Counted from the first letter of the stretch, positions 6,066-33,857 are shown. The stretch is DNA of 64,000 nt from an uncultured Candidatus Saccharibacteria bacterium (GCA_964464695.1 CAYXKW010000003.1:10577-74576), one strand, 5' to 3'. Notes: generated by a model not told the origin, from the sequence alone. A program made the numbers and translations.

Positions 6066-7286
6066 ATGTCTAAATGTATCGAGGTAAAAAAAATTACACG
6101 ATGTGCTCTTATTAAATGGAAGTATCTTGTTATAGCACTTACCTGTGTTATATTTTTTCAATTTCTAACGGAACCCAGAATTCCAGGTATTCTACTATAT
6201 CTAGTTCGACATACTCACGCAAATGGTGCATATGATTATGTGTATTATCCAAAAGACGATTTTAGTGGTTATTCCTATAATTTAATTAGGCATTCTGCAA
6301 CAACTTATGTACTAGCATCGTATCTACATGAGCACCCAATCTACACAAAACTATTCATACACCGTGTCCGGGAATCACTTACATTCCTTGATAGATATCA
6401 AGTACCTTGCGCTCCTAAAATACAAAATTCTCCAATGTGTCTCGTTATTAGCTCGGACCCTCCAACACTTGCTGCAAACGCTTTTACAATTATGGCATTC
6501 CATGCAGTTACACAGTTGCATGGAATTACCGAAGATGAAAAGAAAAGCAATCTCCAAAAAATGATCATGCTTGAAAAATATCTCTCGGCATCTTTTCAAA
6601 AAAATAAGCTCGTCTTTCCTCCACTCACAGACCCAGTTAGTAAACGATATCAGGAAGGACAAGTACTCCTTGCGTGGAGTGTTCTCTACAAAGCAACTGG
6701 TGATATATCATACTTACAAAAGGCGCAGCATCTACGAGATGATATTCTTACTCGACTTACTAATGAGCATGATTATATATTACACCATTGGTTCTGGTTA
6801 GGTTTACAAGAGTATCATCTTATAACAGGTGATTCACTTTCTCAAGAAGAGTTTGAATATCTTACTCGGGCTGCAAATCAAGCACTGTCACTGCAAATTA
6901 ATGAAAAAAACAACCTTCTCTACGGAACGTTCACTAAAGAAAATTCAAAAATAATAAGAACAGATTCATCAGATGAGACAGATGATCCATTAGATCCCTC
7001 CTCATTCTCCGTACGAATCGAAGGATTTGGAACTCTCCTTTCGTTACTTTCATTTAATTCTAATAAAACATGTGCTCCAACTGAACTATGTAGAAATCTC
7101 AAAGAGGGAATACACCTAGCGGCTAAACCATTTTATTCAGCACAAATAAACTTCTTAGATATATTACATGGTTTTTCTTTAAAATCATTTGGCGGGATTC
7201 CCGCGCGACAAAAAGATTCTATGATACAAATTGATTACCTACAACACGCACTCTCAGCATATTTAGTTATTCAAAAATATAAATGA
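6066..7286 (+). CDS. hypothetical protein with N-terminal membrane anchor
   Basis: 406-aa ORF, hydrophobic N-terminus (YLVIALTCVIFFQF). No domain I can name from sequence. Confidence 0.45.
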   Translation: MSKCIEVKKITRCALIKWKYLVIALTCVIFFQFLTEPRIPGILLYLVRHTHANGAYDYVYYPKDDFSGYSYNLIRHSATTYVLASYLHEHPIYTKLFIHRVRESLTFLDRYQVPCAPKIQNSPMCLVISSDPPTLAANAFTIMAFHAVTQLHGITEDEKKSNLQKMIMLEKYLSASFQKNKLVFPPLTDPVSKRYQEGQVLLAWSVLYKATGDISYLQKAQHLRDDILTRLTNEHDYILHHWFWLGLQEYHLITGDSLSQEEFEYLTRAANQALSLQINEKNNLLYGTFTKENSKIIRTDSSDETDDPLDPSSFSVRIEGFGTLLSLLSFNSNKTCAPTELCRNLKEGIHLAAKPFYSAQINFLDILHGFSLKSFGGIPARQKDSMIQIDYLQHALSAYLVIQKYK

Positions 7287-7296
7287 TCTCAAAAAT

Positions 7297-8256
7297 TTAC
7301 ACATCATTCTTTCCTTTCTTCCCGTGGAACTTCTCGAATTGATCACGAAGAAACTTATTCGTAACATTCGTATAAATTTGTGTAGTTGCAATTGACGCAT
7401 GTCCAAGCATAAGCTGTACAGTACGGAGGTCAGCTCCATTATACAAAAGATCTGTTGCAAATGAGTGGCGTAAAACGTGAGGCGTACATTTCTTCGCAAT
7501 TCCGGCACGTTCTGCATATTTTTGCACTACACGCTCAACAGAACGAGGAGTGAGTCTCACTGATTCTTCCTTTACCATTCGAGCATGGGCACGAGGAGAG
7601 TGGTCGATAAACATTGCTTCATCAATATCAACTCTATTTTTCAAATATTTCTGAACAGCCATAAGTGCACCACCCGAAACGAACACAACACGTATCTTGC
7701 CTCCTTTTCCACGCACAGATATTTCACCAGTTCCTAATTCTGTGTCTCTATCTAATGAACACAACTCTGACACTCGAAGTCCTGTTGAGAAAAATAACTC
7801 GAGCATCGCCTTATCACGAAGACCCGCAATTGTTGATTCGTCCGGTGCTGCCAAAAGGTTCATAAGCTCTCGCTCAGATATCAAATCAAGCTCACGTTGT
7901 TGTGTCTTTGCTAACTCAATTCTTTCTGGATCATATCCTTGGATGCCTTTTTTACGAATATATTTAAAAAATGCTCGAAGTGCAATTAAATGATAGTTTT
8001 GTGTTTTCTTGTCCAATGTTTCTTGGACCTGCCCTCGCTTTGCCTCACGCGCTGGATGACGATTAAGGAAAACACGGTACTCTCGCATCATTGGCTCATT
8101 AATATCAGTCGGGGATTCAATACCGGAATGCTTATTAGCAAAGTCTAAAAAACGCGTAAGATAGTGATCGTAATTACGAACAGTGAGAGCACTACGACCT
8201 TTTTCGATTTCAATATACTGAAGGAAATCTTGCTTGAGTGTAAAAAGGGAGGACAT
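7297..8256 (-). CDS. xerC: tyrosine site-specific recombinase, XerC/XerD family
   Basis: N-terminal core-binding domain (LTVRNYDHYLTRFLDF). C-terminal catalytic RHRY region (GLRVSEL..., HVLRHSFATDLLYNGADLRTVQLMLGHASIATTQIYTNV). The track ORF has a 136-codon spurious N-terminal extension. ATG at 8254-8256 gives a 320-aa protein. Confidence 0.8.
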   Translation of the reverse strand: MSSLFTLKQDFLQYIEIEKGRSALTVRNYDHYLTRFLDFANKHSGIESPTDINEPMMREYRVFLNRHPAREAKRGQVQETLDKKTQNYHLIALRAFFKYIRKKGIQGYDPERIELAKTQQRELDLISERELMNLLAAPDESTIAGLRDKAMLELFFSTGLRVSELCSLDRDTELGTGEISVRGKGGKIRVVFVSGGALMAVQKYLKNRVDIDEAMFIDHSPRAHARMVKEESVRLTPRSVERVVQKYAERAGIAKKCTPHVLRHSFATDLLYNGADLRTVQLMLGHASIATTQIYTNVTNKFLRDQFEKFHGKKGKNDV

Positions 8257-8383
8257 AGTGGGCAATGACGAAGGAGTAGACCTCCAGTATATACCAACGT
8301 CGTACAATATTATGTGGAGAATGACTATATATGTATAGATAGGGGATATACTACCTAATAGTAGTACTTTATAGGAGTTTGGT

Positions 8384-8770
8384 GTGCGGAAACTATTCAG
8401 GTGGATTCTTTTTTCTTGTGGGACACTCTTCACACTTATCGGAATAGTGGGGATTTTTATACCGTTACTTCCAACGGTTCCATTTATCATTCTTGCGTCA
8501 ATTTGTTTCGCAAAAAGCTCACCCAAAGCATATGAATGGCTTATAACCAATTCATACACAGGTGAAACAGTGCGACATTTTGAAAAAACGAGGCGAGTGG
8601 TGATTCCAACAAAAATAAAAATTATCGTGATCAGCTCTCTAGTCTTAAGCTCGTATGTGATCATTCAGAGGCAAAACAATGAACTTTTGATATTTTTGCT
8701 CATTTCGATACTATTTTTGGTTGGATGTTACATTCTTTCAAGACCAAATAGTGCCAAAAACCAAAAATAA
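8384..8770 (+). CDS. small inner-membrane protein, DUF454/YbaN-like
   Basis: LIGIVGIFIPLLPTVPFIILASICFAKSSPKAYEWL matches the YbaN/DUF454 pattern. Two TM helices. Confidence 0.55.
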   Translation: MRKLFRWILFSCGTLFTLIGIVGIFIPLLPTVPFIILASICFAKSSPKAYEWLITNSYTGETVRHFEKTRRVVIPTKIKIIVISSLVLSSYVIIQRQNNELLIFLLISILFLVGCYILSRPNSAKNQK

Positions 8771-8792
8771 AGAGTATTTTTTAACTTCATAA

Positions 8793-8817
8793 CCACGCCT
8801 ACAGCGTGGTTATCTTA
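8793..8817 (+). terminator. terminator hairpin after DUF454 gene
   Basis: ataaccacgc-ctaca-gcgtggttat followed by a T-containing tract. Confidence 0.5.
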
Positions 8818-8871
8818 TGTTTATCGGTTTATATACAAAAAAACCATTATACAAAGAGGTCCGGGGTGGGG

Positions 8872-8900
8872 TTGCAATTTTATAAAATGTGTGCTATACT
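8872..8900 (+). promoter_or_regulatory. candidate sigma70 promoter of rpsO (TTGCAA -35, 17-nt spacer, TGcTATACT extended -10)
   Basis: Hexamers read directly, about 30 nt upstream of the rpsO ATG. Confidence 0.4.
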
Positions 8901-8929
8901 ATGTCAATAGTTACTAAATACTACTTTAT

Positions 8930-9193
8930 ATGCTTACTCCTCGAAAAAAGGCAACAGCCATCAAAAACGTTCAAATTCATGCTACAGATACAGGATCTCC
9001 TGAGGTTCAAGTATCTATTTTAAGCAAGAAAATCACTGAACTCACTGGACATCTCAAGGTCCATGCAAAGGATAACCACTCACGACGTGGTCTTATCCAA
9101 ATGGTAGCTGATCGCCGTGTACATCTTAAGTATCTCGAAGCAACTAACAAAAAGCGATACACTGCTTTAGTTACCAAGCTCGGACTTAAGTAA
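8930..9193 (+). CDS. rpsO: 30S ribosomal protein S15
   Basis: 87 aa. ...LTGHLKVHAKDNHSRRGLIQMVADRRVHLKYL... is canonical S15. Confidence 0.9.
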   Translation: MLTPRKKATAIKNVQIHATDTGSPEVQVSILSKKITELTGHLKVHAKDNHSRRGLIQMVADRRVHLKYLEATNKKRYTALVTKLGLK

Positions 9194-9210
9194 TAAACAT
9201 TTTTTTACAA

Positions 9211-9241
9211 GATAAGCGCCACCCTACGGGTGGCGCTTATC
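9211..9241 (+). terminator. strong GC hairpin after rpsO (terminator or processing hairpin; no U-tract on the plus strand)
   Basis: gataagcgccaccc-tac-gggtggcgcttatc, a 14-bp perfect stem. Confidence 0.5.
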
Positions 9242-9395
9242 TACAGAAATAAAGCGGAGTTACATCTTTGTGCAGTATACTAACTATAGTTTTTCATTTT
9301 TAATATTTAATTAATCAATTTTGGTTATTTGTATTCACACAGCATTAAGCAATATCAGCTAGTGCCTCAGGTTACAATATACCGACTATCTATAT

Positions 9396-12606: not shown

Positions 12607-13629
12607 TTAGAAAGGATTTTTTGCTCCACGAACTTCGAAGTGTAGATGCGCTCCTGTAGATTTACCAGTATTCCCAACTTCTCCAATTGTTTGACCTTGT
12701 GTTACTGATTGACCTTGATTAATATAAATATCATTCAAGTGCGCATACACTGTTTGAATACCATTTGCATGAGAAATAATAATCATACTTCCATACCCTC
12801 CATTATAACCACCATTTCTTGCAGCAATAACAGTACCTGCTGCCGCTGCGAACACTGGTGTACCAATTGAGGCAGCAAGGTCAACGCCATTATGCCCATG
12901 AACACCTTGAGATCTTCTTCCTCCCGAAATAGGACGAACAAGAAAGCCTGATGGTGCAGTGTATGTGTAGGAATTAAGAACACGAGGCTGATTTGATGCT
13001 TTTGGTTTTACTGGTTGAACAACTTGAATTTCACCGTCAGGAACAATAACTGTATCACCGATTTCAAGAGATGCATTTACTGCTAAACCGTTGTAAATAG
13101 CAACATCTTGACTGTCTGCTTTATATTTCTTAGCAATAGCTGTGATTGTTTCACCTTTTTTAACAGTGTGGCGAATTCCTGTAATAGGAAGAATGATGAG
13201 CGTATCACCTTTTACAGCAGTTCTTGAGGTAAGATCATTAGCCCATACAATAGTGTTAACAGTTACTCCAAAAAGTTTAGCTATACCATTTAGTGTGTCT
13301 CCTTTTTTTACTTCATACACACTAATTTTATCACTAGCTGGGAAAACGACGTCTTCAGTTGAAATTCGAAGTGGTCCAGAAACTGCTTGGAGTGAGGTTT
13401 GGTTTACATCTTGGTTTTCTTCCGAAGACGACGAGTTACTTTCAACTACGACAGGCTTAAAAAGCACCATAGTTTGTGAGGTGGCAAGAGTTTGCTGATC
13501 TTCATCAACTGAATCTGCAACAAATATTGCTTTAAACTTTTCTGTAAGTGCGGCAAGAGTTCCCGCATTTGCTAAAAGTGGTCGAGCGACTGAAATGATG
13601 CAGAGGAGAATAAGGACACTATGTGACAC
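12607..13629 (-). CDS. LysM-domain M23 family metallopeptidase (peptidoglycan endopeptidase)
   Basis: Signal peptide. Two LysM repeats (YEVKKGDTLNGIAKLFGV..., HTVKKGETITAIAKKY...). M23 motifs HGHNGVDLAA and GNTGKSTGAHLHFE. Confidence 0.8.
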   Translation of the reverse strand: MSHSVLILLCIISVARPLLANAGTLAALTEKFKAIFVADSVDEDQQTLATSQTMVLFKPVVVESNSSSSEENQDVNQTSLQAVSGPLRISTEDVVFPASDKISVYEVKKGDTLNGIAKLFGVTVNTIVWANDLTSRTAVKGDTLIILPITGIRHTVKKGETITAIAKKYKADSQDVAIYNGLAVNASLEIGDTVIVPDGEIQVVQPVKPKASNQPRVLNSYTYTAPSGFLVRPISGGRRSQGVHGHNGVDLAASIGTPVFAAAAGTVIAARNGGYNGGYGSMIIISHANGIQTVYAHLNDIYINQGQSVTQGQTIGEVGNTGKSTGAHLHFEVRGAKNPF

Positions 13630-13868: not shown

Positions 13869-16800
13869 ATGACGGAACCAACTAACCCAGAAAATAAAGG
13901 GGAGGGGACTTCACCAACCTCAGGTAAACCTGCTGGCACTTTTGGACCACCCAATAGAAGAGTGGACAGTATTACTCCTCCAAAGGGTGAGAAGGTTTCA
14001 ACAACCGATCTCGAAAAAATGAGAAAATTGGAAAGATTTTCTGAAAAAGTAGATTATATAATAAAATACGCCAAGAATTTACTGAGTGACGCAAAAGAAC
14101 TACTCCCCCAAGAAGGTTACGCTGAAATTGAATCTATGATTTCAGAACTAGAGAGTTTTAAAGTTGACGTAGAAAAAGATTATAATACATTCGAAAGTTG
14201 TGATGGCGAGGCTGACAAAATTGAAGAAATTTTAAGAGGTGTCCAAAAACAAATTTTTGGACTACTAAATAATGGTGAGGTGGAAGTACTGCAAGAGAAA
14301 AACCGCAATGAAAAAATCACACTACTATCTAGGCAGCAAACAAGATACTTAAAACTTCTTTCCAGTATTGAGACTATTCGAAAATCAAATATTTCAGATA
14401 CAACATTACAAGAGGATACACTTCGTACAGCAGATGAACTCAATTGGCTATCTGAATCTGAAAAAACTGAAGAATTTGCACGAGAAGCAGAATTAGAAAA
14501 ATTAGTAGAAATTAAAACCTCAGTAGACACACTCACAGAAAAATTAGAAGAGGCTCTCATGCTTCTTAAAAAAGAGAACGAAGAGAGGGAACAAACTGAG
14601 ATAGAAAATAAAGCTCAAGAAAATATAAAAACGAGAACTGCAGATATTTCAAGAAAATACCAAGAACTACGAGATGAAGTTGGAGGGTTAAAGATTATTG
14701 ATACCGCACTTCATTCACAAATAGAAGAAAAGGAGGGGGCCATAGCTAAAGTAAGAGGGAAATTAAAAGGTAAGCCTTCACAAAAAAATCTCGACGACTT
14801 TATAAAGCTCGTTACTGAGTATGAAGAGCTACTTCCTGAGTTACGAAGCGCTGTCGTTGCAACTATTACCCCTCCTTCGTTTTTAAGTAGAAGCATCTCT
14901 AATCAGGAGGATCCCGCACCAACTCCAGATAGTACACCAGCTAAAACAACAGAACAATTAACAGACAGAGCGCCTGACGATATAGGTATCTCAAATATCC
15001 GAGAAACAAAAGAATCTCTTGATAGAAATAATGACTCGAAAGAGTACGAGATACTTATTGATGGAAAAAATATACTGGTGCCGAAAGTTTTTTTGGGAAC
15101 ACTCAATAGATACACATCTGCTCTTAAAAATCCAGCACTTAGCGGTAAAGATTTTTCTCGAGCTACAAGATTAAAAGAAGAAGTACTTCATGCGATTGAG
15201 GGTGCTGAATTTGACTTTGCTGACAGAAAGGCGAGAGCATTGGGTGAAGAATTAAATATAATTGAAGGTGTGACGGCTGTAACTGATCCATCAAAAGCAC
15301 CTAACAGAAATGTGGGGGACATTACCGGTAGTTTTGAAAGTGGTTATGAAATACAAACCAAATCAGGTTTACACCCGCTAAGAAATCCAAAAGTTCCTGA
15401 AACTATAATGAAATATGAGGAAATGTCGAATGACCCAAAATATGTAGGGTATGATTTTACGTTAGCAAGTCAAAGTAAAGATGCGGTTATTGCTAAGTTA
15501 GTTGACGATGATTTCGCACAAGCAAAATTTGAAGCAATGAGACTAGGGGATGAGTTACGTAAAATAGAGCTAGCAGTTAATGATGCTGTTGCCAAAGAAA
15601 ACAGTAGGAGGGGGTTACAAAGGAGCCCTAAGGATATTAATCTACCTGAAATAAGCGAAAATAAAAAAGCTGGAAGCGAAGAGAATCGATATAAAATTAG
15701 AATTAATGGAAAATTTGAAACTGTACCTCTGTCAGCACTTCACACTCTTAATCGGTATAAGAAAATTTTTGAAAATCAAGCATTCAAAAGTGAAAACTTT
15801 ACTTCTGCAATTACACTTAAGGATGCAGTACTAGACGCAATACAAACAGGGGATTTTACTACGGCAAAAAAGAAAGCAGATTTACTTACGATTGAGCTTA
15901 ATAGAATAACCAAAGAAAATAGCAATCAAAATAGTACACAAGAAAATCAAAGTGCAAAAACTGGACAGGAACCTAGTCAACTAGAAAAAAATAAAAAATT
16001 TAATAACCCACCGGTTGGAGAAATTGTATCTCTTTTAACTAAAGATCGTTATGTTGGAAAGCAAGTAGAATACAGAGCGAAAAATAATACTTCCGCAGAG
16101 CGGGAAATAATAAATGATTTAAAAACATGGGAAAAAAAATGGCTACTAGGGGGTGCAATTGATACCTATCGTGAAAAAAATGGCAACATTAAAATTAGTG
16201 ATGCTCAAGTACGTACAACAAAATTAATTCTCCAAACATACAAGCAATTATTAGAACAAAACATTAACTCAGAAGTTAATACGGACGTGATGAGAACTGT
16301 ACCCCAAAATATTATTATATGTACACAGATACTTGCCGGAATACATAATGAAACAAAAAGTGACATCAAATACTTGGTTGAACACTACAGTGAGCGAGCT
16401 GATGATGCATTGTTGCAAAAGTTAAGAAGTTATTTTATTGCTCAACCACATGTCACACACAAACAATTATCTTCTATAGAGAATAGCAACCTTGAAAAGC
16501 GATTCTTACTACTGGGCAACACACTAAAAGATGGCGACACTGTCTTACAAACTATCCTTCCATACATAACATCTACAGAGGAGAGAAGTTCTCTACTCAA
16601 ACTTTCTAGTGAATTAAAAACACTCGAGGAAGAAATAAAAGGAAATAAAACTCTAGAATTAATCGAATCATTTAAGAAAAAATTAGACGTGTATCTCATG
16701 TATGTAACAAAAAAAGCTGCAGTGTTACAAGCTAGATATGGTGCACAAAATATCGTACCTCAGCCAACAGTGTCTCCAAAAAACATAACTGTCATGCGTA

Positions 16801-18185
16801 GTAAAAGATTACGTGGTGACGGTCCGAAAACTGAAACACTCGAAGAATATGATAAGCGCGAAAAGTTAGAGAAAGTTGTAACTGACGCTAAAAATAGTGA
16901 CGAACACCAAGAAAACCAAGATGAGCTAAGAAAGAAACATCAGGAAATGTTTGCTCGTGATCCTGACCTCTACAAACATATCTATGGAGGGGGGAATAAA
17001 GTACGTGACGATGTTACTGAGAAAATTTCATCAGAAATTCTGCCATCAAAATCTGCCCAGACTCCAAAAGAATATCTAATAGCTCTTATAAAAGAAAAAG
17101 AGGTCCTCGAAAAGAAGTGGCAAGCTATCTATGATGATATTGCCAAAGGAACTGCTGTTGGTAATCCAACTGGGGAAGCCAAAGTACTACGTGCACAAAT
17201 TGAGCTTCTTGATCTACGAATAGCAAAGTACACCAAAGTTATTCTTGATGATCAAATCCACAAACCAGAACACTCTTCATTTGTAACCAATAAAATGGTG
17301 TACAGCCCAACAGATGAAGTACAGCCCACACCAGGTGCCGTAAACATCGGTCGGGAACTTTTAACGAACAGAGAAGAAATAGAAGCACTTGGAAAAGAAC
17401 AAGTTAATGTGGCAACGAGTGTCCTTCCTCATCATCAATCAGGACTTATATCGACGCTCACTCCACAGCAAGCAGGGATAGCTGAAGGAGCTATTCACTT
17501 AGAGCCTGGAGCAATGGACAATACTGACTTAGAACGTTATAAAACAGAAAATCCTGAAGCAAAAGTTGTTAGTGTAGAAAATAAACAAGAACGCCAAACA
17601 TTTGTTCAAAAACTAGTTGACGTACTTTTTACATTTCCAAAAGTAAGAATGAATAAGTGGGGGTGGCTTGCAGCTGGATTAACAACAGCTGCGGTTGGGG
17701 GAGCTGCTGCATATACCGTAGGGACAGTCGAAAAAAATAATAGACCGAAAACTATTGCAGAACTTATAAAAAATCAACCATCATGGGAGACTTTTATAAA
17801 CGAAAATGTTCCAAAACAATTTATTCTTAATTTTAACGGACCAAAAGCATTACCCTTTGATGAATTTATTAAAGTCAGTGCTCCTTCGTTTGCAATTGGA
17901 CCAAATAATCCATCTGCAAAAGATAAGATTGCAAATTTACTTTGTAAAGATGTCTACGATGTTGAGGGTGCAAACAGTGGATTAACAGAGCTACAACAGC
18001 GTGAGAGTGCAGAGATAGTTAAAAACCTACAAGAGATTATCAAAGCAACAAAAGCACCTTCTGGTGTACTCTACGAAAAAGATGCTCGATTCTTTGGTGA
18101 TATGACTATTCGTCAACTCTATGAAGTAGCTCGTAAAATTGCTGCTGACGCTACAACAGAAAAAGCTAGACTAGGTACAAAATAA
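13869..18185 (+). CDS. giant (1438 aa) acidic coiled-coil protein with internal repeats and a single predicted TM helix near the C-terminus
   Basis: No signal peptide. Long K/E-rich coiled-coil. Internal duplication: YEILIDGKNILVPKVFLGTLNRY...FSRATRLKEEVLHAIEGAEFDFADRKARALGEELN vs YKIRINGKFETVPLSALHTLNRY...FTSAITLKDAVLDAIQTGDFTTAKKKADLLTIELN. TM WGWLAAGLTTAAVGGAAAYTVGTV at about aa 1270. Confidence 0.6.
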   Translation: MTEPTNPENKGEGTSPTSGKPAGTFGPPNRRVDSITPPKGEKVSTTDLEKMRKLERFSEKVDYIIKYAKNLLSDAKELLPQEGYAEIESMISELESFKVDVEKDYNTFESCDGEADKIEEILRGVQKQIFGLLNNGEVEVLQEKNRNEKITLLSRQQTRYLKLLSSIETIRKSNISDTTLQEDTLRTADELNWLSESEKTEEFAREAELEKLVEIKTSVDTLTEKLEEALMLLKKENEEREQTEIENKAQENIKTRTADISRKYQELRDEVGGLKIIDTALHSQIEEKEGAIAKVRGKLKGKPSQKNLDDFIKLVTEYEELLPELRSAVVATITPPSFLSRSISNQEDPAPTPDSTPAKTTEQLTDRAPDDIGISNIRETKESLDRNNDSKEYEILIDGKNILVPKVFLGTLNRYTSALKNPALSGKDFSRATRLKEEVLHAIEGAEFDFADRKARALGEELNIIEGVTAVTDPSKAPNRNVGDITGSFESGYEIQTKSGLHPLRNPKVPETIMKYEEMSNDPKYVGYDFTLASQSKDAVIAKLVDDDFAQAKFEAMRLGDELRKIELAVNDAVAKENSRRGLQRSPKDINLPEISENKKAGSEENRYKIRINGKFETVPLSALHTLNRYKKIFENQAFKSENFTSAITLKDAVLDAIQTGDFTTAKKKADLLTIELNRITKENSNQNSTQENQSAKTGQEPSQLEKNKKFNNPPVGEIVSLLTKDRYVGKQVEYRAKNNTSAEREIINDLKTWEKKWLLGGAIDTYREKNGNIKISDAQVRTTKLILQTYKQLLEQNINSEVNTDVMRTVPQNIIICTQILAGIHNETKSDIKYLVEHYSERADDALLQKLRSYFIAQPHVTHKQLSSIENSNLEKRFLLLGNTLKDGDTVLQTILPYITSTEERSSLLKLSSELKTLEEEIKGNKTLELIESFKKKLDVYLMYVTKKAAVLQARYGAQNIVPQPTVSPKNITVMRSKRLRGDGPKTETLEEYDKREKLEKVVTDAKNSDEHQENQDELRKKHQEMFARDPDLYKHIYGGGNKVRDDVTEKISSEILPSKSAQTPKEYLIALIKEKEVLEKKWQAIYDDIAKGTAVGNPTGEAKVLRAQIELLDLRIAKYTKVILDDQIHKPEHSSFVTNKMVYSPTDEVQPTPGAVNIGRELLTNREEIEALGKEQVNVATSVLPHHQSGLISTLTPQQAGIAEGAIHLEPGAMDNTDLERYKTENPEAKVVSVENKQERQTFVQKLVDVLFTFPKVRMNKWGWLAAGLTTAAVGGAAAYTVGTVEKNNRPKTIAELIKNQPSWETFINENVPKQFILNFNGPKALPFDEFIKVSAPSFAIGPNNPSAKDKIANLLCKDVYDVEGANSGLTELQQRESAEIVKNLQEIIKATKAPSGVLYEKDARFFGDMTIRQLYEVARKIAADATTEKARLGTK

Positions 18186-18191: not shown

Positions 18192-18476
18192 ATGAACTTC
18201 GAAGAAATATACAACCAACTTATTATTGATTTTAAATTAGAAGACCTGCCAGAGGAGGACAGGGAGGAGACTCTTACTGAGATTTCAAAAACAATACAGA
18301 AACAATTTCTCATTGATATATACGATCAGATTGGAAAGAAAAATTTTGAAGCACTACAAGCATCAGCAAACATGGGAGAGGACTTCTATTTCACAACCCT
18401 TAAACATCTCGTACCCAACTATGATGAACTGTTTCACGGGGCTCGGAAAAAAATAATACAAGCATTTCATGTGTAG
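18192..18476 (+). CDS. small acidic hypothetical protein
   Basis: 94-aa ORF immediately after the giant gene, followed by a terminator. Confidence 0.4.
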   Translation: MNFEEIYNQLIIDFKLEDLPEEDREETLTEISKTIQKQFLIDIYDQIGKKNFEALQASANMGEDFYFTTLKHLVPNYDELFHGARKKIIQAFHV

Positions 18477-18480
18477 ATAA

Positions 18481-18508
18481 AAAGTGGTCGTAAGACCACT
18501 TTTTGTAT
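18481..18508 (+). terminator. rho-independent terminator
   Basis: aaagtggtc-gtaa-gaccacttt followed by TTTG. Confidence 0.6.
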
Positions 18509-18549
18509 ATAGAATTGGTATCATTTTGTAAAATTAATGACAAAGTAGC

Positions 18550-21032: not shown

Positions 21033-21830
21033 ATGCTTCCAAAAAAATCCCTTGGTCAAAATTTTCTTACTTCTATTCCTGCACGTATAGCTATTGTGAA
21101 AGCAGGGGAAATAGTGCCGTCTGACACTATTTTTGAAGTTGGTCCAGGGAGAGGATTCCTCACAAAAGGTTTACTCGAGACGAGAGCGTGTGTTGTTGCT
21201 CTTGAAAAAGATAGAGATCTTATCCCGGTACTCACAGAAACCTTTGCGGAAGAGATCGCAAATAAGCAGCTTATCCTAACTGAAGGGGATGTCCTTGATT
21301 TTGACCTTACTGACCAAAAGCTAATGGCTAATGGCTACAAACTGATTGCAAACATTCCATACTACATAACAGGCGCAATTCTCTCAAAGTATCTCTCTCA
21401 CACACACCAACCGAACATGATGGTGGTCTTAGTACAAAAGGAAGTGGCAGAACGAGTATGCGCACGTGATGGTAAAGAGTCTCTCCTTTCACTTTCGGTA
21501 AAAGTATACGGCGAACCAAAAGTGTACTATAGAGTATCTCGCGGGAGTTTCAACCCTGCGCCAAATGTTGACTCGGCAGTCCTTCAAATAAAAAACATCT
21601 CACGTGCTAACTTTACTAATCAATACCATGAAGCAATTTTCTTCAAACTTATTCACGCTGGATTTGCTCATAAAAGGAAATTTGCTATCTCAAATATTAA
21701 AGAAGTCTTTGCTGCATTTGATATTCCAGCTTTATTTGAAGAAGTTGGACTTTCTCCGAAGGTGCGAGCTGAGGATGTTACACTCTCCTCATGGCTGTTA
21801 CTATCCTCTCGTTTGTCTACACACTCATAA
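21033..21830 (+). CDS. rsmA: 16S rRNA (adenine1518/1519-N6)-dimethyltransferase
   Basis: KKSLGQNFL...VFEVGPGRGFLT is the KsgA SAM-binding motif. C-terminal KsgA domain. Confidence 0.85.
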   Translation: MLPKKSLGQNFLTSIPARIAIVKAGEIVPSDTIFEVGPGRGFLTKGLLETRACVVALEKDRDLIPVLTETFAEEIANKQLILTEGDVLDFDLTDQKLMANGYKLIANIPYYITGAILSKYLSHTHQPNMMVVLVQKEVAERVCARDGKESLLSLSVKVYGEPKVYYRVSRGSFNPAPNVDSAVLQIKNISRANFTNQYHEAIFFKLIHAGFAHKRKFAISNIKEVFAAFDIPALFEEVGLSPKVRAEDVTLSSWLLLSSRLSTHS

Positions 21831-23203
21831 CTGTAGGGCTTCTTTATTTTTTTCTTAATAAATCTCTTACCCGGGACTTTCCATTACGAAAAAACATACC
21901 TTGGTGGATACTCTTTGGTTTTGTTTTTAATTTTTGTAGTTTCACATGGCTCTATACCGTCTATCCACTTATTTGGATACCAACGGGAGTACTACAGATT
22001 ATTGGTATCGCAATCATTCATCTTACGGTATCTATTCTCGTAGGGCTTTGTTTTTGTATTGTAGGGTACATACTGACAAACTCTTCTTCCAAGAAGATTA
22101 CATCCATATATAGACCATTTCTATTTGCAGCCAGCCTTACACTAGCAGAAGTATTCCGGTCACTTATGTTGTCACTTATTTTTTATGGCAATGATGGGTC
22201 GATTAACTTGCACTTCACCTCAGGAACTCTTGGAAATGCACTTTCATCTACACCACTTATCGAGTTTGCATATTTTGGTGGGACGTTTGCACTCACCTTT
22301 CTACTTGGATACCTTGTCTATTCCTTCAGTTCTTACTCTCATATGAAGACCTACTGGAAACACGTTGCTATCATAGTAGCAATACTTGTTGGTATTCATG
22401 TATTTGTTCCAATATATGGTCCAACACAAAAAACAGTAGTTGGTATTGTTACTACTCATTTTAAAACACAATCAGATAATTATCTTGTAAGTTCTTTTAA
22501 AGAACAAAATATAAAAGTAGATGCAATGACACAATCTTTTTTCATATCTTCACGTGATATACCTGATATCATTGTCTATCCAGAAGACACGCGTTATATA
22601 GACCACCTCTCAAATGAAAAGGTATCACTACTTTCAACAACATTTCCAAAAACACTTTTTGTTGATGGTTCTACACGAATCATTGATGGTAAACGTGTCA
22701 ACATTTCATTTTTTTATAATTCTGAAACCAGAAAGACGTTAGGGCGTGGTAAAAGTTTTCTACTACCCTTTAATGAGTACATTCCATTATTCTTTAAACC
22801 TATATTTGGATTTTTTATTCCTAAAGAAGAGATGGGGGAGTACTCAGCTAATCACACGTATACACCAGTCTACTCAGGTAAAACAATCTTTTTTAATGGT
22901 ATGCACATTGGCACACTACTTTGTTCAGAAATTCTCTCGTTTAAAACAATAGCGGATGTAAAAAAAGAGAAACCCTCTCTTGTGTTCTTTCAATCACATT
23001 TAAATGTATTCCATGATAACTCACTGTTTAGAATGCACCTCTACTCTTTTACAAAAATAGCAGCTGCACAGTTGCGGCGTCCACTTATAAGTAGCACAAA
23101 TGGTGCACCTTCACTTATTGTTTCTCCGTATGGAGTAATCATTGAAATCATTCCTACTGGGTTTAGTACATCGACACATGTATTTTCATCTCCTTCTCAA
23201 TAA
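21791..23203 (+). CDS. lnt: apolipoprotein N-acyltransferase-like membrane protein (CN-hydrolase fold)
   Basis: Six or more N-terminal TM helices. Candidate Lnt catalytic triad context: IVYPED (E), KSFLLPFNEYIPLFF (K, close to Lnt K..LVPFGEY.P) and GTLLCSEIL (C). The start overlaps the ksgA end and is uncertain. Confidence 0.5.
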   Translation: MAVTILSFVYTLITVGLLYFFLNKSLTRDFPLRKNIPWWILFGFVFNFCSFTWLYTVYPLIWIPTGVLQIIGIAIIHLTVSILVGLCFCIVGYILTNSSSKKITSIYRPFLFAASLTLAEVFRSLMLSLIFYGNDGSINLHFTSGTLGNALSSTPLIEFAYFGGTFALTFLLGYLVYSFSSYSHMKTYWKHVAIIVAILVGIHVFVPIYGPTQKTVVGIVTTHFKTQSDNYLVSSFKEQNIKVDAMTQSFFISSRDIPDIIVYPEDTRYIDHLSNEKVSLLSTTFPKTLFVDGSTRIIDGKRVNISFFYNSETRKTLGRGKSFLLPFNEYIPLFFKPIFGFFIPKEEMGEYSANHTYTPVYSGKTIFFNGMHIGTLLCSEILSFKTIADVKKEKPSLVFFQSHLNVFHDNSLFRMHLYSFTKIAAAQLRRPLISSTNGAPSLIVSPYGVIIEIIPTGFSTSTHVFSSPSQ

Positions 23204-23326: not shown

Positions 23327-24253
23327 ATGAACGAACAACAAAACATGACAACAAAGAAAGCACTCATTGTTGTTGGACTTTTTATTTTTTTACTTATGAT
23401 TACGCTTGTTGCTCCTGCAACCTGGGTCGGGGTTAAGCCAAAAAAACAAACTGGTCTTATTCTTAGAAATGCTAATGATTTCGCTGTTCTTTCAAAAGAT
23501 ACAGACAGAAATAATAACCCAGACTGGAAAGACCTTCTCATGCAGACAACAAGTGCGTCCACGACCGCTGTTGCAAATAAATATATTGTTACAGAAGCCG
23601 ACAAACAAAGACTTGATGACCCTAACAACATAACATCTTCTTTTTCTAAGAATCTCTACACAGTCTCTTCCTATGCAAAAAAGGCAGGGGACATGTCTAC
23701 ATCTGAACAAGAATCTATTGTAACAAGTCTAGTGACAAAGGAAGTACAAAAAATAGAGACTTCAGTGTATACATTTGATGACATTAAAGTATCAAGCACT
23801 GAAACCCCTACAAGTATTAGAGCGTACGGTAATCAACTTGGTACTATTTTTAAAAAGGCAACGAGTTTTAAGTTAGAGATTGTTGATGTAGACAAAATTC
23901 AAGCGTACAGTACAAATAAAGATCCTAATACTCTAGCTTCACTTGTTATTAAAAAAAATAATGCGAAGCTCATCTTAGAAGAACTTCTTAAAGTATCTGC
24001 TCCTAGATCAGCTTCGCCCTACCATCTCCTTATAGTTAACAGACTATCTGGGTATATAACTGTATTAGAAAATATGACTCAAGCTGAAAATGACCCTATG
24101 CGTGCAACGATTGCTTTTAATAACTATCTTCCAGCAATGAGATTACTCTTTTCATCACTATCAAATATGCAGCTGTATTTTAAGTTGTCTGATACCACAT
24201 TTTCTCAAAATGAACCTGGATATGTCTTAAATTCAGAGTATACTATCAAATAA
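23327..24253 (+). CDS. hypothetical bitopic membrane protein, first gene of the T4SS-like block
   Basis: N-terminal TM (ALIVVGLFIFLLMITLVAPA), then an about 280-aa extracytoplasmic domain. Confidence 0.45.
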   Translation: MNEQQNMTTKKALIVVGLFIFLLMITLVAPATWVGVKPKKQTGLILRNANDFAVLSKDTDRNNNPDWKDLLMQTTSASTTAVANKYIVTEADKQRLDDPNNITSSFSKNLYTVSSYAKKAGDMSTSEQESIVTSLVTKEVQKIETSVYTFDDIKVSSTETPTSIRAYGNQLGTIFKKATSFKLEIVDVDKIQAYSTNKDPNTLASLVIKKNNAKLILEELLKVSAPRSASPYHLLIVNRLSGYITVLENMTQAENDPMRATIAFNNYLPAMRLLFSSLSNMQLYFKLSDTTFSQNEPGYVLNSEYTIK

Positions 24254-24255
24254 CT

Positions 24256-25893
24256 ATGAAATATTTTTTCTTTCTTTTTTTCTTTCTTCTTAGCACAATT
24301 ACTCCAACGCAAGTTCATGCAGGCGCTGCAGGTGGAGGGTCTACTGAAGTTACACAGATTCTTAATAATGTTCAACTAATTCCTATAAACTACTCTGATG
24401 CAATTACAGCCTTTGCAACCAAAGGAACGTTTGTTAAAGAAGTTATTCTTAATCCAATAGCAAATGCTCTTATTTCCTCAGCTCTTGAAGGAGTTAGTAA
24501 TGATATTCTTTCATGGGTAAGTGGCGGTTTTGGGGGATCAGCACCACTTGTGATTGGTGACCCCGAGAGTTACATTAGAAACGCTGGTCTCGAAGCTGTT
24601 CGCGATAGTCTTTCTGGAATTCCAACTGATAGTGTTTTTGGGGACAGTATTTTTAATTCAATTCTTAACCAGTACAAAAACACAGACGACGTAACTGCTA
24701 CACTAAAAAATCTAAGCAAGTCTGATATTCCCTCTATTCTTCAGAATAATTTATGTACCGATGAGAAGTTGACGTCACTTTCTGTTGATGCGATAGCGGA
24801 CCAAAATGGTAACTATAACCAAGCAGATCTTACTGCCAAAAAAACAGAGCTGTGGAATTATGCATGTGCCGGAGATCCAGAGTCTAATCCACAAGTTGCA
24901 GCAAGGTTACAGGATCTTAATGATCAGAATCCATCAATTGGTGGCTGGGATACATATCTTGCTACAACAGGAGGAGACAATGCTTACACAAAAGGTGCAT
25001 TAGCAAAAAACGTCGTGAAAGAAGCCGACGAAATAAAAAAATCACTTGCTTCAAAAGAATTGTTTGATGGCGCAGGACCAGTGAGCGAGAAAGAATGTCT
25101 AAAGTTTGATGGAAATGTTAGTGAAGGTCAGATTGCAAAATGTTTACAATGGTTAACTACAACTCCAGGGGAACAAGTAGGGGATACTCTTACTGAGGCT
25201 CTCACCGCAGGAACTAAAAGACTAGAAAACATCATGGGGGACGGTTCATTAACTAACATGCTACAAGGTTTTGCTGTTTCTGCTATTACATCAGGCATAA
25301 AAAAGGCACTTAATTCATCTAGTGGTGGCTCACTCAATATTCCCATAGCCCTCCCTTCTAGTCGCCCAATAGTTCAAGACCTACTAAATGACCCACTTAA
25401 GAAAACTCAAAACTTACAGCCAATGGACAAGCAACTGGCATATTTCTCAACCTCACTAAACAACCTTGCGTCAATTGATAGTAGTTACATGACAGACCTT
25501 TTGTCTTATGAAGCGAAAATTGCCACCTTAAGTACTTGCGCCCTCGCATCCTCATACTACAGTAACAGAATGAGTAGAATCACTACTGCAAAAAGCTCAA
25601 TTATAGCAGAACAAGCAAAAATTGCTGAAGCAAAACTTCTTGTAACCGAAACCCAAACTAAGCTAAATGCTTCTGATTCATCCCAGGAACAAAGTACGAT
25701 TTTTAACGCCTATTTAACTGCTGTAGATGACAGAGGCCTTCCAACTTACCAAACAGAAGCAACTCGAGAAGCTGAGTACACCATCAACAAATTCAATGTT
25801 AGCCATGATACAGAATTGGGAACTTACCAGACACAGTGTGCTCAACAGCAGCAACAGCAGCAACCCAATCAAATATACGAAGGTAGCGGATAG
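24256..25893 (+). CDS. secreted hypothetical protein (545 aa)
   Basis: Signal peptide MKYFFFLFFFLLSTITPTQVHA. Q-rich C-terminus (QQQQQQQPNQ). Confidence 0.5.
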   Translation: MKYFFFLFFFLLSTITPTQVHAGAAGGGSTEVTQILNNVQLIPINYSDAITAFATKGTFVKEVILNPIANALISSALEGVSNDILSWVSGGFGGSAPLVIGDPESYIRNAGLEAVRDSLSGIPTDSVFGDSIFNSILNQYKNTDDVTATLKNLSKSDIPSILQNNLCTDEKLTSLSVDAIADQNGNYNQADLTAKKTELWNYACAGDPESNPQVAARLQDLNDQNPSIGGWDTYLATTGGDNAYTKGALAKNVVKEADEIKKSLASKELFDGAGPVSEKECLKFDGNVSEGQIAKCLQWLTTTPGEQVGDTLTEALTAGTKRLENIMGDGSLTNMLQGFAVSAITSGIKKALNSSSGGSLNIPIALPSSRPIVQDLLNDPLKKTQNLQPMDKQLAYFSTSLNNLASIDSSYMTDLLSYEAKIATLSTCALASSYYSNRMSRITTAKSSIIAEQAKIAEAKLLVTETQTKLNASDSSQEQSTIFNAYLTAVDDRGLPTYQTEATREAEYTINKFNVSHDTELGTYQTQCAQQQQQQQPNQIYEGSG

Positions 25894-25917
25894 TAACTTA
25901 CTTCTTTAGAAAATACT

Positions 25918-25947
25918 AAAAGTCACAAACAATTGTTTGTGACTTTT
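25918..25947. terminator. perfect 30-bp palindrome / terminator hairpin
   Basis: aaaagtcacaaacaattgtttgtgactttt. Confidence 0.5.
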
Positions 25948-26007
25948 AGTATTTTCTAATAACAACCAAACCCTTTCCTAACCTAACTATATGATACACT
26001 ACACATC

Positions 26008-28896: not shown

Positions 28897-28899
28897 CAT

Positions 28900-29643
28900 A
28901 TGAGTACACCATCTTACATCGCAACAAACCCAGATGAGCTCTTCGAAAAAGCTTCTGTAGAAATACAAGACTTAATTGCTGGTGGAGAAATTGATACTGA
29001 GATTAAATCTCTTAGTACTAAATATAAAATCCCTGAAGAATTCCAAACGCCTCTCTCTAACATTATTTCCTTTATTTTAATTGGGGCGATTGATACAGAT
29101 GATGTTGTTCAAGCACTTCAAGATCTTGTAAACATTAGTCTTGATGATGCAATTCGCATCGCAACTGACCTAGAACATGGCGTCCTCGAGAAGGCTCATA
29201 TATCTCTTCTTAAAAAATCTGACGACACTATTGCCACACTTGAATTCCAAGGAGAGAAATCTAAGACTGAGCTCAGGAAAGATATATTAGATACAACCAA
29301 AAGGGAATCTGCACTTGCTAAAAATCCGGTTCCAGTTGCAACAGCTCCAAAAAAACCAGCCACTATCTTAAAGCCTGGCTCTCGTTCACAACTTCTTGAA
29401 CAACTCCAGGTTCTAGGTACAATACCAAATGAAGAAGAGATAGCGACAAGAATTTCTCATATTCAAGAACAAATTACATCACTAAAAAAAGAGGAAGAGG
29501 ACAGTAGCCTTACCTCTAACATAGCACTTAAGAGTTTCATGTTTGGGGAAAAAGGAAAGGACATTGCGGATCAAACCATAAAAACAACCTACAGTGTTCC
29601 TCCAACACGATACACCGTTGATCCATACAGGGAAGTAGATTAA
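28900..29643 (+). CDS. hypothetical soluble acidic protein within T4SS-like block
   Basis: 247-aa ORF, no TM segment. The start ATG is 4 nt after the upstream stop. Confidence 0.45.
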   Translation: MSTPSYIATNPDELFEKASVEIQDLIAGGEIDTEIKSLSTKYKIPEEFQTPLSNIISFILIGAIDTDDVVQALQDLVNISLDDAIRIATDLEHGVLEKAHISLLKKSDDTIATLEFQGEKSKTELRKDILDTTKRESALAKNPVPVATAPKKPATILKPGSRSQLLEQLQVLGTIPNEEEIATRISHIQEQITSLKKEEEDSSLTSNIALKSFMFGEKGKDIADQTIKTTYSVPPTRYTVDPYREVD

Positions 29644-29846
29644 AACCCCGAAAGACACCAGATGTCGGACCGCTTTGCTAACAGACAGTCAGAAAAAATA
29701 CTACGTCACTATTATTTAATTCTAGTTTTATAGCCAGAAGTCTGACAGTCTGTTTGTCGGACGTCTGAATGTACTTGTGCCCACCAAACAAAACATGTGA
29801 GCTAAAGGCTACCGGCTAAAAGCTAAAAGCTGTATACTATATACAT

Positions 29847-30278: not shown

Positions 30279-30359
30279 ATTTATTGTTATAGCCTAAAAA
30301 ATATAAATTGTTAAGTACTGCACAGTTTTGAAGTACATTCTCATGTATACTGTACGTAT

Positions 30360-31001: not shown

Positions 31002-31006
31002 CAACT

Positions 31007-33804: not shown

Positions 33805-33857
33805 AAACCATACACCTTCTTTGAAGATGGGTATTTGTTGATATACTACACACAAAC

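Follow-up and report, generated by a model that had tools for sequence, protein, structure and literature searches.

A fast-evolving, predicted all-helical modular protein family of one Saccharibacteria lineage, tentatively read as a membrane-tethered scaffold

Sequence comparison indicates that a 1438-aa protein encoded in the analysed window, a 64-kb stretch of a Candidatus Saccharibacteria chromosome close to oriC, is a member of a fast-evolving modular family, all-helical and not described before, that is confined to one lineage of the Saccharibacteria, which are tiny parasitic bacteria. We tentatively read this large protein as a cytoplasmic scaffold that is tethered to the membrane and has a small ectodomain, and give this reading a probability of roughly 0.35. 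It builds on what was observed here of the anatomy, the pattern of conservation, the operon and the synteny, and extends this to a presumed topology, a presumed binding of partners and a presumed role in the envelope or in cell organisation.

Results

The large gene and its family

The coding sequence lies at 13869..18185 on the plus strand (ORF list and translation; ATG to stop, stop codon included), as do all features described below unless otherwise stated, and is the longest ORF of the window, the runner-up having 962 aa; the sequence-only reading that preceded this work had likewise named it the largest gene. The N-terminus MTEPT.P..G is common to the protein and its orthologues, which supports the ATG at 13869 as the start and, judged by these comparisons, the ORF as a real one. 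The suspicion that frameshifts might split it into several smaller genes was not borne out, since full-length orthologues with an identical order of parts occur at the same chromosomal position in independent assemblies, and the gene is therefore not an assembly or frameshift artefact. With 10.5% E, 9.9% K and a pI of 5.7, the protein previously called acidic is so only mildly. No paralogue was found within the 64-kb window.

An exhaustive HMMER search of 1.84 billion representatives recovered ~60 relatives, all from one Saccharibacteria lineage. These relatives had no Pfam, NCBIfam, PHROG, PADLOC, PDB-sequence or significant Foldseek match, and constitute a genuine orphan family. The earlier statement that there is no enzymatic motif held, as Pfam and NCBIfam returned no enzymatic domain, and AF2 predicted confident all-helical bundles with no catalytic-looking domain; PADLOC gave no anti-phage defence match for the large protein or for the partner described below. 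Across the family, the length ranges from 557 to 1595 aa and the number of modules from 1 to 5, and the large gene is the most divergent of its neighbourhood (25-36% identity vs 45-96%). Constraint is uneven: the C-terminal domain, the hydrophobic helix, the linker motifs and the N-terminal peptide are conserved, while the helical and module regions drift and vary in copy number, which is the pattern of spacer or scaffold proteins.

Architecture of the large protein

The N-terminal peptide (aa 1-44, 13869..14000) is Pro/Gly/Thr-rich and predicted to be disordered (AF2 pLDDT 38-43), and carries the conserved motif M-T-x-P-T-x-P-x-x-G ... G-x-F-x-P in the consensus of 15 sequences. No signal peptide was found, in agreement with the sequence-only reading, the first 45 residues being polar and Pro/Gly-rich with a longest hydrophobic run of 1 residue, and a sequence check found no LPXTG motif. 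The following K/E-rich alpha-helical region (aa 45-330, 14001..14858) was modelled by AF2 with pLDDT mostly >90 as helices of 20-64 aa each, from H45-74 through H322-328. It holds the only heptad-like stretches of the protein, as a scan with its threshold at the 99th percentile of shuffles flagged aa 81-114, 210-239 and 247-287, ~105 aa in total. The region had been described as hundreds of residues of K/E-rich coiled coil; its K/E-rich helical nature stands, whereas the coiled coil was overstated, the helices being interrupted by breaks. The models are consistent with helical bundles rather than one long rod. A coiled-coil rod of the crescentin or FilP/Scy type, for which an almost unbroken heptad or hendecad rod several hundred residues long would be expected, was accordingly rejected on the short heptad total and the lack of a continuous rod in the AF2 models.

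Behind a Pro-rich, largely disordered linker (aa 331-391, 14859..15041; AF2 pLDDT <50 over aa 339-363) follow three copies of a ~75-aa module, predicted as a beta-hairpin and then three helices. Copy 1 (aa 392-466, 15042..15266; module HMM E 8e-26) comprises the AF2 elements E392-397, E400-405, H406-420, H430-444 and H448-466. Copy 2 (aa 494-567, 15348..15569; E 3e-18; AF2 helices 508-581) has diverged, with a degenerate hairpin part, and is partly deleted in the orthologue P0002. Copy 3 (aa 607-681, 15687..15911; E 2e-26) comprises E608-612, E615-618, H621-635, H645-660 and H663-690. Copies 1 and 3 share 44% identity (E 3e-16), and copy 2 shares ~30% with each of them (E 2-3e-7), so that the repeat is real and far above chance, with three copies where a duplication had been reported.

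The helical 'domain X' (aa 714-857, 16008..16439; AF2 pLDDT ~90-97) carries the motifs W-E-K-x-W, ID-x-(Y/F)-R-x-K-N-G-N-I and ILAGIH. It occurs in some orthologues only and is the sole detectable similarity in many distant family members, the corresponding profile positions 384-490 matching ~25 other proteins. Next comes a helical core (aa 869-1130, 16473..17258; AF2 pLDDT >90 at model residues 10-90 and ~120-260) that is conserved across the 14 full-length members and consists of three long helices (aa 869-957), which in the model read as a bundle, and a further helical region. The linker behind it (aa 1131-1235, 17259..17573) is predicted to be disordered (pLDDT 40-55), and is 78% identical to that of the closest relative vs 55% over the whole protein. 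Its two consensus motifs, K-(Q/M)-V-Y-S-P (aa 1142-1147) and P-(N/H)-H-x-x-G-(M/L) (aa 1187-1193), are both kept in the 668-aa orthologue of locus L010. A conserved amphipathic helix, E-R-x-x-F-V-x-K-L-x-x-x-L in the family alignment (aa 1236-1256, 17574..17636; AF2 helix at model residues 371-390), directly precedes the hydrophobic helix. The all-alpha C-terminal domain of ~145 aa (aa 1295-1438, 17751..18182; alignments, AF2 pLDDT ~88-95) is the best-conserved part, with invariants that include P1339, F1341, N1347, G1371, Q1376, Q1377, E1379, F1409, T1413 and Y1418; it had no PDB sequence match and no Foldseek match.

The hydrophobic helix and the proposed topology

The candidate membrane anchor is an Ala/Gly/Thr-rich helix, WGWLAAGLTTAAVGGAAAYTVGT (aa 1264-1286, 17658..17726), located by Kyte-Doolittle and Hessa scales and the family alignment. 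It lies 152-175 aa from the C-terminus, with ~155 aa following, where a TM helix ~170 aa before the end had been called; the position was right, and the helix is only weakly hydrophobic. A bitopic protein needs a segment of ~19-23 residues that is hydrophobic enough for translocon-mediated insertion. Here the Kyte-Doolittle maximum is 1.24 and the summed Hessa dG is +3.8 kcal/mol (family median +4.0, best +1.1), compared with -1 to -3 for genuine TM anchors in the same window (PBP1a, an Lnt-like protein and anchors of the T4SS region). Of 27 relatives, 24 keep the helix in this position and the other three have lost it. This weakness relative to real anchors, together with the losses, makes insertion into the cell's own membrane uncertain. 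One subgroup of the family has a clearly more hydrophobic helix (+1.1 to +2.1), and AF2 gave an isolated helix with pLDDT 34-49.

Trp and Tyr bracket the helix ~20 residues apart, and among the relatives compared the net charge is +2 to +4 on the N-side and ~0 on the C-side, although the difference in K+R count between the flanks is short of significance (p = 0.11). This aromatic belt and the basic N-flank fit a membrane helix, and with the lack of a signal peptide they fit an N-in, C-out orientation, which is the topology proposed for the large protein.

The partner gene and the conserved locus

Six nt after the stop codon starts a gene for a 94-aa acidic protein (18192..18476, pI 4.7), followed by an intrinsic terminator (18478..18509) with the stem AAAAAGUGGUC / GACCACUUUUU and a U-run, identified from sequence and fold (dG -24.8 kcal/mol, z -3.9; 0/200 shuffles fold as well). 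Both the small acidic ORF and the terminator had been noticed before, and the terminator closes a two-gene unit of large gene and partner. A partner of ~95 aa follows the large gene in the window and in all 13 loci fetched, a sample drawn from at least 11 other genomes, and the partner is represented by 444 clusters that match at ≥60% identity. Its identity of 63-96% is at the level of core housekeeping proteins and well above the 25-68% of nearby ORFs of the T4SS region, which argues that the partner binds something conserved inside the cell. No Pfam family matched it in a scan that admitted E up to 10. In size, acidity and the N-terminal 'L-x-L-x-D-L-P-E-E-D/E-R-E-E' followed by '...P-N-Y-x-E-L', it resembles the small helical 'LGL..LPEE' Patescibacteria proteins of Pfam DUF5663, although the same scan gave no support for membership. 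Assignment to the WXG100/T7SS proteins, which are helical hairpins of ~100 aa around a central W-x-G motif, was rejected, as neither this motif nor a Pfam match was found.

The large gene is flanked in the window by ComM, NlpD, UvrD and KsgA (Pfam). The NlpD-like gene (12607..13629, minus strand; signal peptide, LysM and M23 peptidase by Pfam) is divergent, and such a LysM-M23 gene lies upstream in eight of the nine loci with contigs that reach that far, being placed identically in L002, L003, L005, L007, L008 and L010 (Pfam) and in L011 (tblastn, 70% over 326 aa). In the window and the 13 fetched loci, UvrD follows the partner wherever the contig extends. Neither mobile-element features at the loci examined nor phage genes near the large gene were seen, and the housekeeping synteny is conserved. 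As judged from these sequences, the orthology of the large gene is vertical and positional, with a single copy. The adjacency to secretion genes that had been proposed as a check does exist: a T4SS-like cluster, with a VirB4-like gene at 31007-32836, begins ~5 kb downstream, both in the window and in related loci. It carries little weight, however, because the whole region is syntenic, housekeeping and near the origin, and the terminator, uvrD and ksgA lie between the two-gene unit and the cluster. In S. epibionticum, no pair of a large gene and a 94-aa gene was found upstream of uvrD.

Comparison with known systems

HubP/FimV of Vibrio and Pseudomonas are very large, acidic polar hubs with a single membrane helix, repeated short cytoplasmic modules and a small domain across the membrane. 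Their size and their number of repeats differ from species to species, and HubP carries a LysM domain outside at its N-terminus and a FimV motif at its C-terminus. The large protein resembles them by architecture only, as far as this analogy of size, repeats, single candidate helix and small far-side domain goes, but its proposed orientation is opposite to that of HubP, and neither its sequence nor its fold is similar. When the whole protein and five segments of it were scanned against Pfam and NCBIfam, no LysM or FimV match was obtained. MapZ/LocZ and RodZ, bitopic proteins that serve as landmarks or cytoskeleton adaptors, are like the proposed topology in having a cytoplasmic N-part with an interaction region, one TM helix and a conserved small outer C-domain, but differ in being four to ten times smaller and in their strongly hydrophobic anchors. 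RodZ is recognised by one TM helix that has an XRE-type HTH (PF13413) on its N-terminal side and DUF4115 on its C-terminal side; the only RodZ-type trace was an insignificant alignment of HTH_25 to module 1 (E 0.093, 13 bits vs a cutoff of 24.6), and no DUF4115 was found.

Antiparallel helical bundles on flexible linkers, as predicted for the large protein, are also found in vinculin, alpha-catenin, talin and the spectrin-like EzrA. Vinculin was the top Foldseek PDB match for aa 1-870, which was not significant (E 0.099, probability 0.12, TM 0.09); vinculin-type adaptors are eukaryotic, and no homology is implied. Phage tape-measure proteins are likewise long and alpha-helical, with Gly/Ala-rich, weakly hydrophobic segments toward the C-terminus, but the large protein had no PHROG match, its BFVD Foldseek matches had E ≥0.019 and TM ~0.1, and its context is chromosomal and housekeeping rather than a tail-gene module. 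A Sec-exported or sortase-anchored surface protein, which would show a signal peptide at the N-terminus and, near the C-terminus, LPXTG ahead of a hydrophobic stretch and a basic tail, was not indicated either, given the lack of an N-terminal hydrophobic run and of LPXTG, and the ~155 aa past the helix.

Discussion

In the scaffold reading, the gene would encode, in expanded form, a single-copy structural protein that is specific to one Saccharibacteria clade. The ~1260 N-terminal residues of the protein would form a long modular platform in the cytoplasm that combines helical bundles with one to five beta-hairpin/three-helix modules and with disordered linkers; on this platform, the conserved N-terminal peptide and the two linker motifs may be docking sites and the co-transcribed 94-aa acidic protein may be one docking partner. 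The weakly hydrophobic helix at aa 1264-1286 would tether the protein to its own membrane with N inside and C outside, and the 145-aa C-terminal domain would then lie on the wall side, where it may contact the envelope and possibly act together with the divergently encoded LysM-M23 hydrolase. The overall role would be that of an envelope-linked scaffold or landmark, akin to HubP/FimV, TipN or MapZ without homology to them, and the gene neighbourhood is the sole pointer to a possible part in division, polarity or the wall. No scaffold family is backed by a match in fold or sequence, and the fastest evolution in the region also fits a host-interaction protein, which counts against the scaffold reading.

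A cytoskeletal protein, a tether and a large effector had been offered before as options. The observations agree with a helical scaffold or tether and not with the rod-like cytoskeletal type, and an exported effector is also compatible with them. The large protein might thus be a host-directed effector or translocator that probably leaves through the neighbouring T4SS with the 94-aa protein as chaperone or adaptor, its Gly/Ala-rich helix being kept from the producer membrane to insert in that of the host and its variable N-terminal modules engaging the host; we consider this main rival unlikely. Reduced hydrophobicity is a described property of type III and IV secretion substrates with a TMD, and the segment is below the insertion range of the organism's own anchors in a protein with no Sec signal. 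By analogy, the tightly coupled small acidic helical neighbour, the marginal helix and the rapid evolution with module gain and loss recall type III/IV effector-chaperone pairs such as VirE2-VirE1, and the conserved C-terminal domain could hold an export signal. The nearby T4SS-like cluster also fits, as do the weak, non-significant top BFVD matches to phage tape-measure proteins, which are likewise ejected, membrane-active and helical. The T4SS of Saccharibacteria, mostly without relaxases, is essential for epibiotic growth, and no substrates of it were identified in the two studies concerned (PMC10633639; 10.1101/2025.01.22.634366). S. epibionticum, however, has this essential T4SS and lacks the gene pair at uvrD, and the partner, unlike in effector-chaperone pairs, is far more conserved than the nearby secretion proteins needed for docking. 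What defines type IV substrates is their T4SS- or coupling-protein-dependent translocation, together with a signal or domain, for example XVIPCD or a basic tail at the C-terminus; in the large protein, Pfam revealed no known translocation signal or domain, and the gene is single-copy, strictly vertical and part of no dedicated secretion operon.

That the protein is instead soluble, an unanchored scaffold or adaptor in the cytoplasm whose helix is a small-xxx-small oligomerisation element and whose C-terminal domain is a cytoplasmic interaction domain, seems to us quite improbable. It would accommodate the marginal hydrophobicity, the three members without the helix, the flank difference short of significance and the isolated low-confidence AF2 helix, as for a segment needing a partner, but the Trp/Tyr belt with its basic N-flank is typical of a membrane helix and one subgroup is clearly more hydrophobic. 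Large, modular and fast-evolving proteins include many adhesins, and adhesins are required for epibiotic growth (PMC10633639); a surface adhesin or tether with its large N-terminal part outside and a C-terminal anchor is nevertheless very unlikely, as the protein has neither signal peptide nor LPXTG motif, its basic flank is on the N-side, its K/E-rich helical-bundle composition is typical of cytoplasmic proteins, and a conserved globular domain follows the helix, unlike a sortase or tail anchor. Least credible is that a phage tape-measure or tail-lysin gene was domesticated and survives here as a remnant, to which the adjoining M23 peptidase gene and the top BFVD matches (tape-measure proteins and lysins, E 0.02-0.2) would point; these matches are not significant (probability ≤0.41, TM ~0.1, rmsd >30), and the missing PHROG match and the phage-free, conserved housekeeping surroundings speak against it. 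Four points go beyond the sequence-only reading: the module has a third copy, a conserved domain forms the C-terminus, the small partner is extremely conserved, and the TM call is weak.

The large gene is followed by a small acidic partner gene and a terminator

An ATG-to-stop ORF on the forward strand at 13869-18185 encodes a protein of 1438 aa; no longer ORF occurs in the 64 kb, the runner-up having 962 aa, and the sequence-only reading had rightly named it the largest gene in the window. A frameshift or assembly artefact as the source of this ORF was rejected. The encoded protein is rich in Lys and Glu (E 10.5%, K 9.9%), as had been described, but the acidity ascribed to it is mild (pI 5.7). 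Its first 45 residues are polar, Pro/Gly-rich and free of any hydrophobic run, and therefore a Sec-type signal peptide is absent, as had been claimed. The partner ORF (18192-18476; 94 aa, pI 4.7) starts 6 nt past the stop codon of the large gene, and 3′ of it, at ~18478-18509, lies a terminator with a strong hairpin and a U-run (dG -24.8 kcal/mol, z -3.9) that was overlooked by a simple consensus scan, so that the predicted arrangement of a small acidic ORF and then a terminator was borne out.

Gene order is fixed and the large protein is the most divergent product

The genes around the large gene are of housekeeping type: upstream lie those for an NYN-domain protein and ComM and a divergent LysM-M23 (NlpD-like) gene, and downstream uvrD, ksgA and the gene for an Lnt-like protein. 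Next comes a series of ORFs that lack Pfam matches, among them one for a VirB4-like ATPase; beyond it, dnaA and dnaN occupy a stretch of low GC and are followed by genes for a class A PBP, a PilB-like ATPase and PolA. A type IV secretion system (T4SS) close to dnaA and ksgA is a layout described for Patescibacteria (10.1101/2025.01.22.634366), and the window agrees with it.

Beyond the window's own genome (L001), 13 loci, L002-L014, were compared. They represent no fewer than 11 other genomes (L012 and L013 may share one organism) and span close relatives to members with a single shared domain. A homologue of the partner of ~95 aa lay directly 3′ of the large gene in all 13, and UvrD came next wherever the contig reached downstream. 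The LysM-M23 gene was found upstream on the opposite strand in eight of the nine loci whose contigs reached that far; the exception was L009, with a gene of 381 aa on the same strand, and L006 carried only a truncated fragment, matched to NlpD by tblastn. Given this fixed gene order, the large genes are positional orthologues, and their products range from 557 to 1595 aa. L010 (ENA ERZ27249449, 254-kb contig, 6993-9288) is fully syntenic with Saccharibacteria, and the NCBI record of its partner says 'Candidatus Paceibacterota bacterium'; the alternatives are a mistaken label and a pair that reaches beyond the clade as now named.

At every locus compared, the large protein was the most divergent product; its identity to the window copy was 25-36% at loci with 77-92% for UvrD, 69-82% for ComM, 66-77% for KsgA, 55-72% for NlpD and 63-82% for the partner. 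Even in the closest relative, where the partner and UvrD are each 96% identical, the large protein reached only 55-59%; dN/dS for this comparison is unreliable because dS exceeds 1. Constraint within the large protein was uneven, with 74-85% identity in the linker motifs, the hydrophobic helix and the C-terminal domain and 20-31% in aa 470-860. The partner was represented by 444 clusters at ≥60% identity, without annotation.

The large protein and its partner belong to undescribed families

A word-indexed search of 5.8 billion proteins with the full-length query returned the protein itself and one relative (32% identity), and likewise when a 15-sequence alignment was used. When 1.84 billion representatives were searched exhaustively by HMMER with aa 380-1438 as the query, 60 proteins passed E ≤ 0.001 and 18 of these E ≤ 1e-30, so that for this K/E-rich helical query the two methods gave 60 versus 2 matches; helical queries of low complexity appear to fill the 8000-candidate limit of the word-indexed search. 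About 15 of the HMMER relatives have the full architecture; the others share only the C-terminal domain (aa 1295-1438) or only a helical domain, here called domain X (aa 714-857). Scanning the GTDB species representatives with a five-sequence C-terminal alignment yielded one Saccharibacteria locus; a two-sequence alignment, for which the patterns chosen were poor and of low complexity, gave no match.

Pfam held no informative domain among the 53 relatives scanned, and Pfam, NCBIfam, PHROG and PADLOC together gave no meaningful match for the large protein, five segments of it or those relatives. Sequence-profile searches of the PDB with aa 380-1438, the C-terminal domain, the partner and the repeated module returned nothing significant, and a literature search found no paper describing the large protein, its domains or its partner. 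No catalytic domain was found in the large protein, in line with the initial impression that it lacks a recognisable enzymatic motif. The large protein, its three domain types and the partner are undescribed; these types (domain X, the module and the C-terminal domain, for which the model is good) represent new families suitable for entry in domain databases.

Predicted structure consists of helical bundles, three modules and a C-terminal domain

Two AlphaFold2 models built with family alignments cover aa 1-870 (mean pLDDT 82) and aa 866-1438 (mean pLDDT 76). In these models aa 1-44 are disordered, and aa 45-330 form helices predicted with confidence, 20-64 aa long and separated by breaks, which we read as bundles and not as one rod; the coiled coil proposed earlier was right as to helicity in this region, but corresponds mostly to such bundles. 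A disordered Pro-rich stretch (aa 339-363) precedes three modules (aa 392-466, 508-581 and 595-690), each a beta-hairpin with three helices, and domain X. A presumed bundle of three long helices (aa 869-957), additional helices (aa ~985-1130) and a low-confidence linker (aa 1131-1235) with the conserved motifs K-Q/M-V-Y-S-P and P-N/H-H-x-x-G-M/L are followed by an amphipathic helix (aa 1236-1255), a low-confidence hydrophobic helix (aa 1264-1282) and the confident, all-alpha C-terminal domain. The 668-aa version at L010 retains the GTF of the N-terminal motif, both linker motifs, the hydrophobic helix and the C-terminal domain. Foldseek gave no match at E ≤ 0.001, whether against the PDB, for both models, or against BFVD.

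The duplicated ~75-aa module noted from sequence is a real repeat, well above chance, but has three copies rather than two: aa 392-466 and 607-681 share 44% identity (E 3e-16), and the more diverged aa 494-567 shares ~30% with both (E 2-3e-7). A module HMM detected 49 copies across 21 family proteins, at one to five copies each.

The conserved hydrophobic segment is a likely but weak membrane helix

The hydrophobic segment (aa 1264-1286, WGWLAAGLTTAAVGGAAAYTVGT) lies 152-175 aa from the C-terminus and keeps its position in 24 of 27 relatives, three lacking it. A Trp/Tyr belt extends across ~20 residues, and the N-side flank has a net charge of +2 to +4 and the C-side flank is about neutral, although the K+R counts of the two flanks did not differ significantly (p = 0.11). 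Its best 19-mer had a summed Hessa dG of +3.8 kcal/mol (in the family, the median is +4.0 and the best value +1.1), compared with -1 to -3 kcal/mol for the anchors of PBP1a, the Lnt-like protein and T4SS-region proteins in the window. The conserved position, the Trp/Tyr belt and the basic N-flank favour a membrane helix; the Hessa value, the loss in three relatives and the flank statistics disfavour it. On balance, the segment is a likely candidate for a membrane helix, and, should it span the membrane, the charge pattern favours N-in, C-out. The C-proximal TM helix of the sequence-only reading therefore survives as a conserved hydrophobic segment whose predicted insertion is weak.

A lineage-specific scaffold is the leading, tentative interpretation

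We tentatively favour, at a probability of roughly 35%, a lineage-specific structural scaffold. In the cytoplasm the protein would form a long platform built from helical bundles, modules for binding and linear motifs, with the weak helix as a tether and the conserved small domain outside, and would act together with the highly conserved cytoplasmic 94-aa partner. Strictly vertical, single-copy orthology, conservation of the partner at housekeeping level, a spacer-like constraint pattern and the lack of a catalytic domain all support this reading. A soluble scaffold in which the helix drives oligomerisation is rather unlikely, a surface adhesin improbable and a tape-measure remnant very improbable. 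A chlamydial Inc-type effector, a first impression from context, was ruled out, the organism being a Saccharibacterium.

We know of no identified substrate of the Saccharibacteria T4SS. This system is essential in S. epibionticum (PMC10633639), and no substrate of it was identified in that study or in 10.1101/2025.01.22.634366. Unlikely, though the main rival, is that the large protein is exported and host-directed with a chaperone-like partner: the missing Sec signal, the nearby T4SS, the sub-threshold hydrophobicity of the helix and a rapid evolution in which modules turn over speak for it, but the partner is more conserved than T4SS-region proteins. The adjacency to secretion genes holds as such, but it reflects whole-region synteny, with the terminator, uvrD and ksgA intervening. 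Furthermore, S. epibionticum has no such pair upstream of uvrD: in strain ML1 (SEML1_0666-0669; PMC10633639 Table S1, Tn-seq) the gene directly upstream is SEML1_0669, a non-essential 492-aa hypothetical, and no ~94-aa gene lies between it and uvrD. SEML1_0669 could be a degenerate positional analogue of the large gene. It is unlikely that the pair constitutes the first identifiable substrate and chaperone of the Saccharibacteria T4SS, in which case export would carry the large protein onto or into the host bacterium, its marginally hydrophobic Gly/Ala helix would insert in the host membrane, and its hypervariable modules would keep pace with targets on the surface or in the cytoplasm of the host, which would explain epibiont host specificity.

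The large protein would fit a general type already known, that of large modular membrane-linked helical proteins with a small partner. Its closest analogues, in architecture only, are HubP/FimV, MapZ/RodZ-type bitopic landmarks and vinculin/talin-like helical-bundle adaptors, and effector-chaperone couples are nearest by gene pairing and hydrophobicity; apart from the generic class of bitopic membrane proteins, for which the helix gives mixed signals, the testable defining features of known families were found in neither the large protein nor the partner. Saccharibacteria, ultrasmall bacteria that live as obligate epibionts, have a little-characterised cell biology and host-interaction machinery, and more than half of their genes lack annotation; large hypothetical proteins are common in Patescibacteria. 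Here, one clade has a fixed chromosomal two-gene unit in which a hypervariable modular protein, at most ~1600 aa long, is paired with a housekeeping-conserved partner, and it is the combination of fixed synteny, hypervariability and ultra-conservation that makes it a worthwhile target. As a scaffold, the large protein would represent a lineage-specific way for a budding epibiont to organise its envelope or polarity, and as an exported protein a first candidate cargo of a secretion system essential to a parasitic lifestyle.

Other features of the window

The forward-strand ORF run at 23327-37077, mostly without Pfam matches, is probably the Saccharibacteria T4SS cluster, just upstream of dnaA; it includes a weakly matched TrbJ-like ORF (24256-25893, forward), a VirB4-like ATPase (31007-32836, forward; PF19044 TraG P-loop) and, also on the forward strand, the 962-aa protein, which has a strong TM segment. 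The end of ksgA and the Lnt-like ORF (21791-23203) share 40 nt. Both dnaA (38750-40087) and dnaN (40354-41445) lie in the lowest-GC part of the window (0.30-0.32; 38000-42000), likely the replication origin region. A local GC peak at 50055-52120 (0.51 versus ~0.38) is at least partly due to an Ala/Pro/Val-rich 331-aa membrane protein (51125-52120) without a Pfam match; a 325-aa minus-strand ORF over 50055-51032 looks spurious, and a 224-aa forward ORF lies at 50265-50939. In PolA (55393-57735), Pfam matched the 5'-3' exonuclease and polymerase domains and no 3'-5' exonuclease domain. A 455-aa tyrosine recombinase (7297-8664, minus strand; phage integrase family), which has a long extension at its N-terminus, is probably Xer-type rather than a prophage marker, because L010 carries a 317-aa integrase at a similar position.
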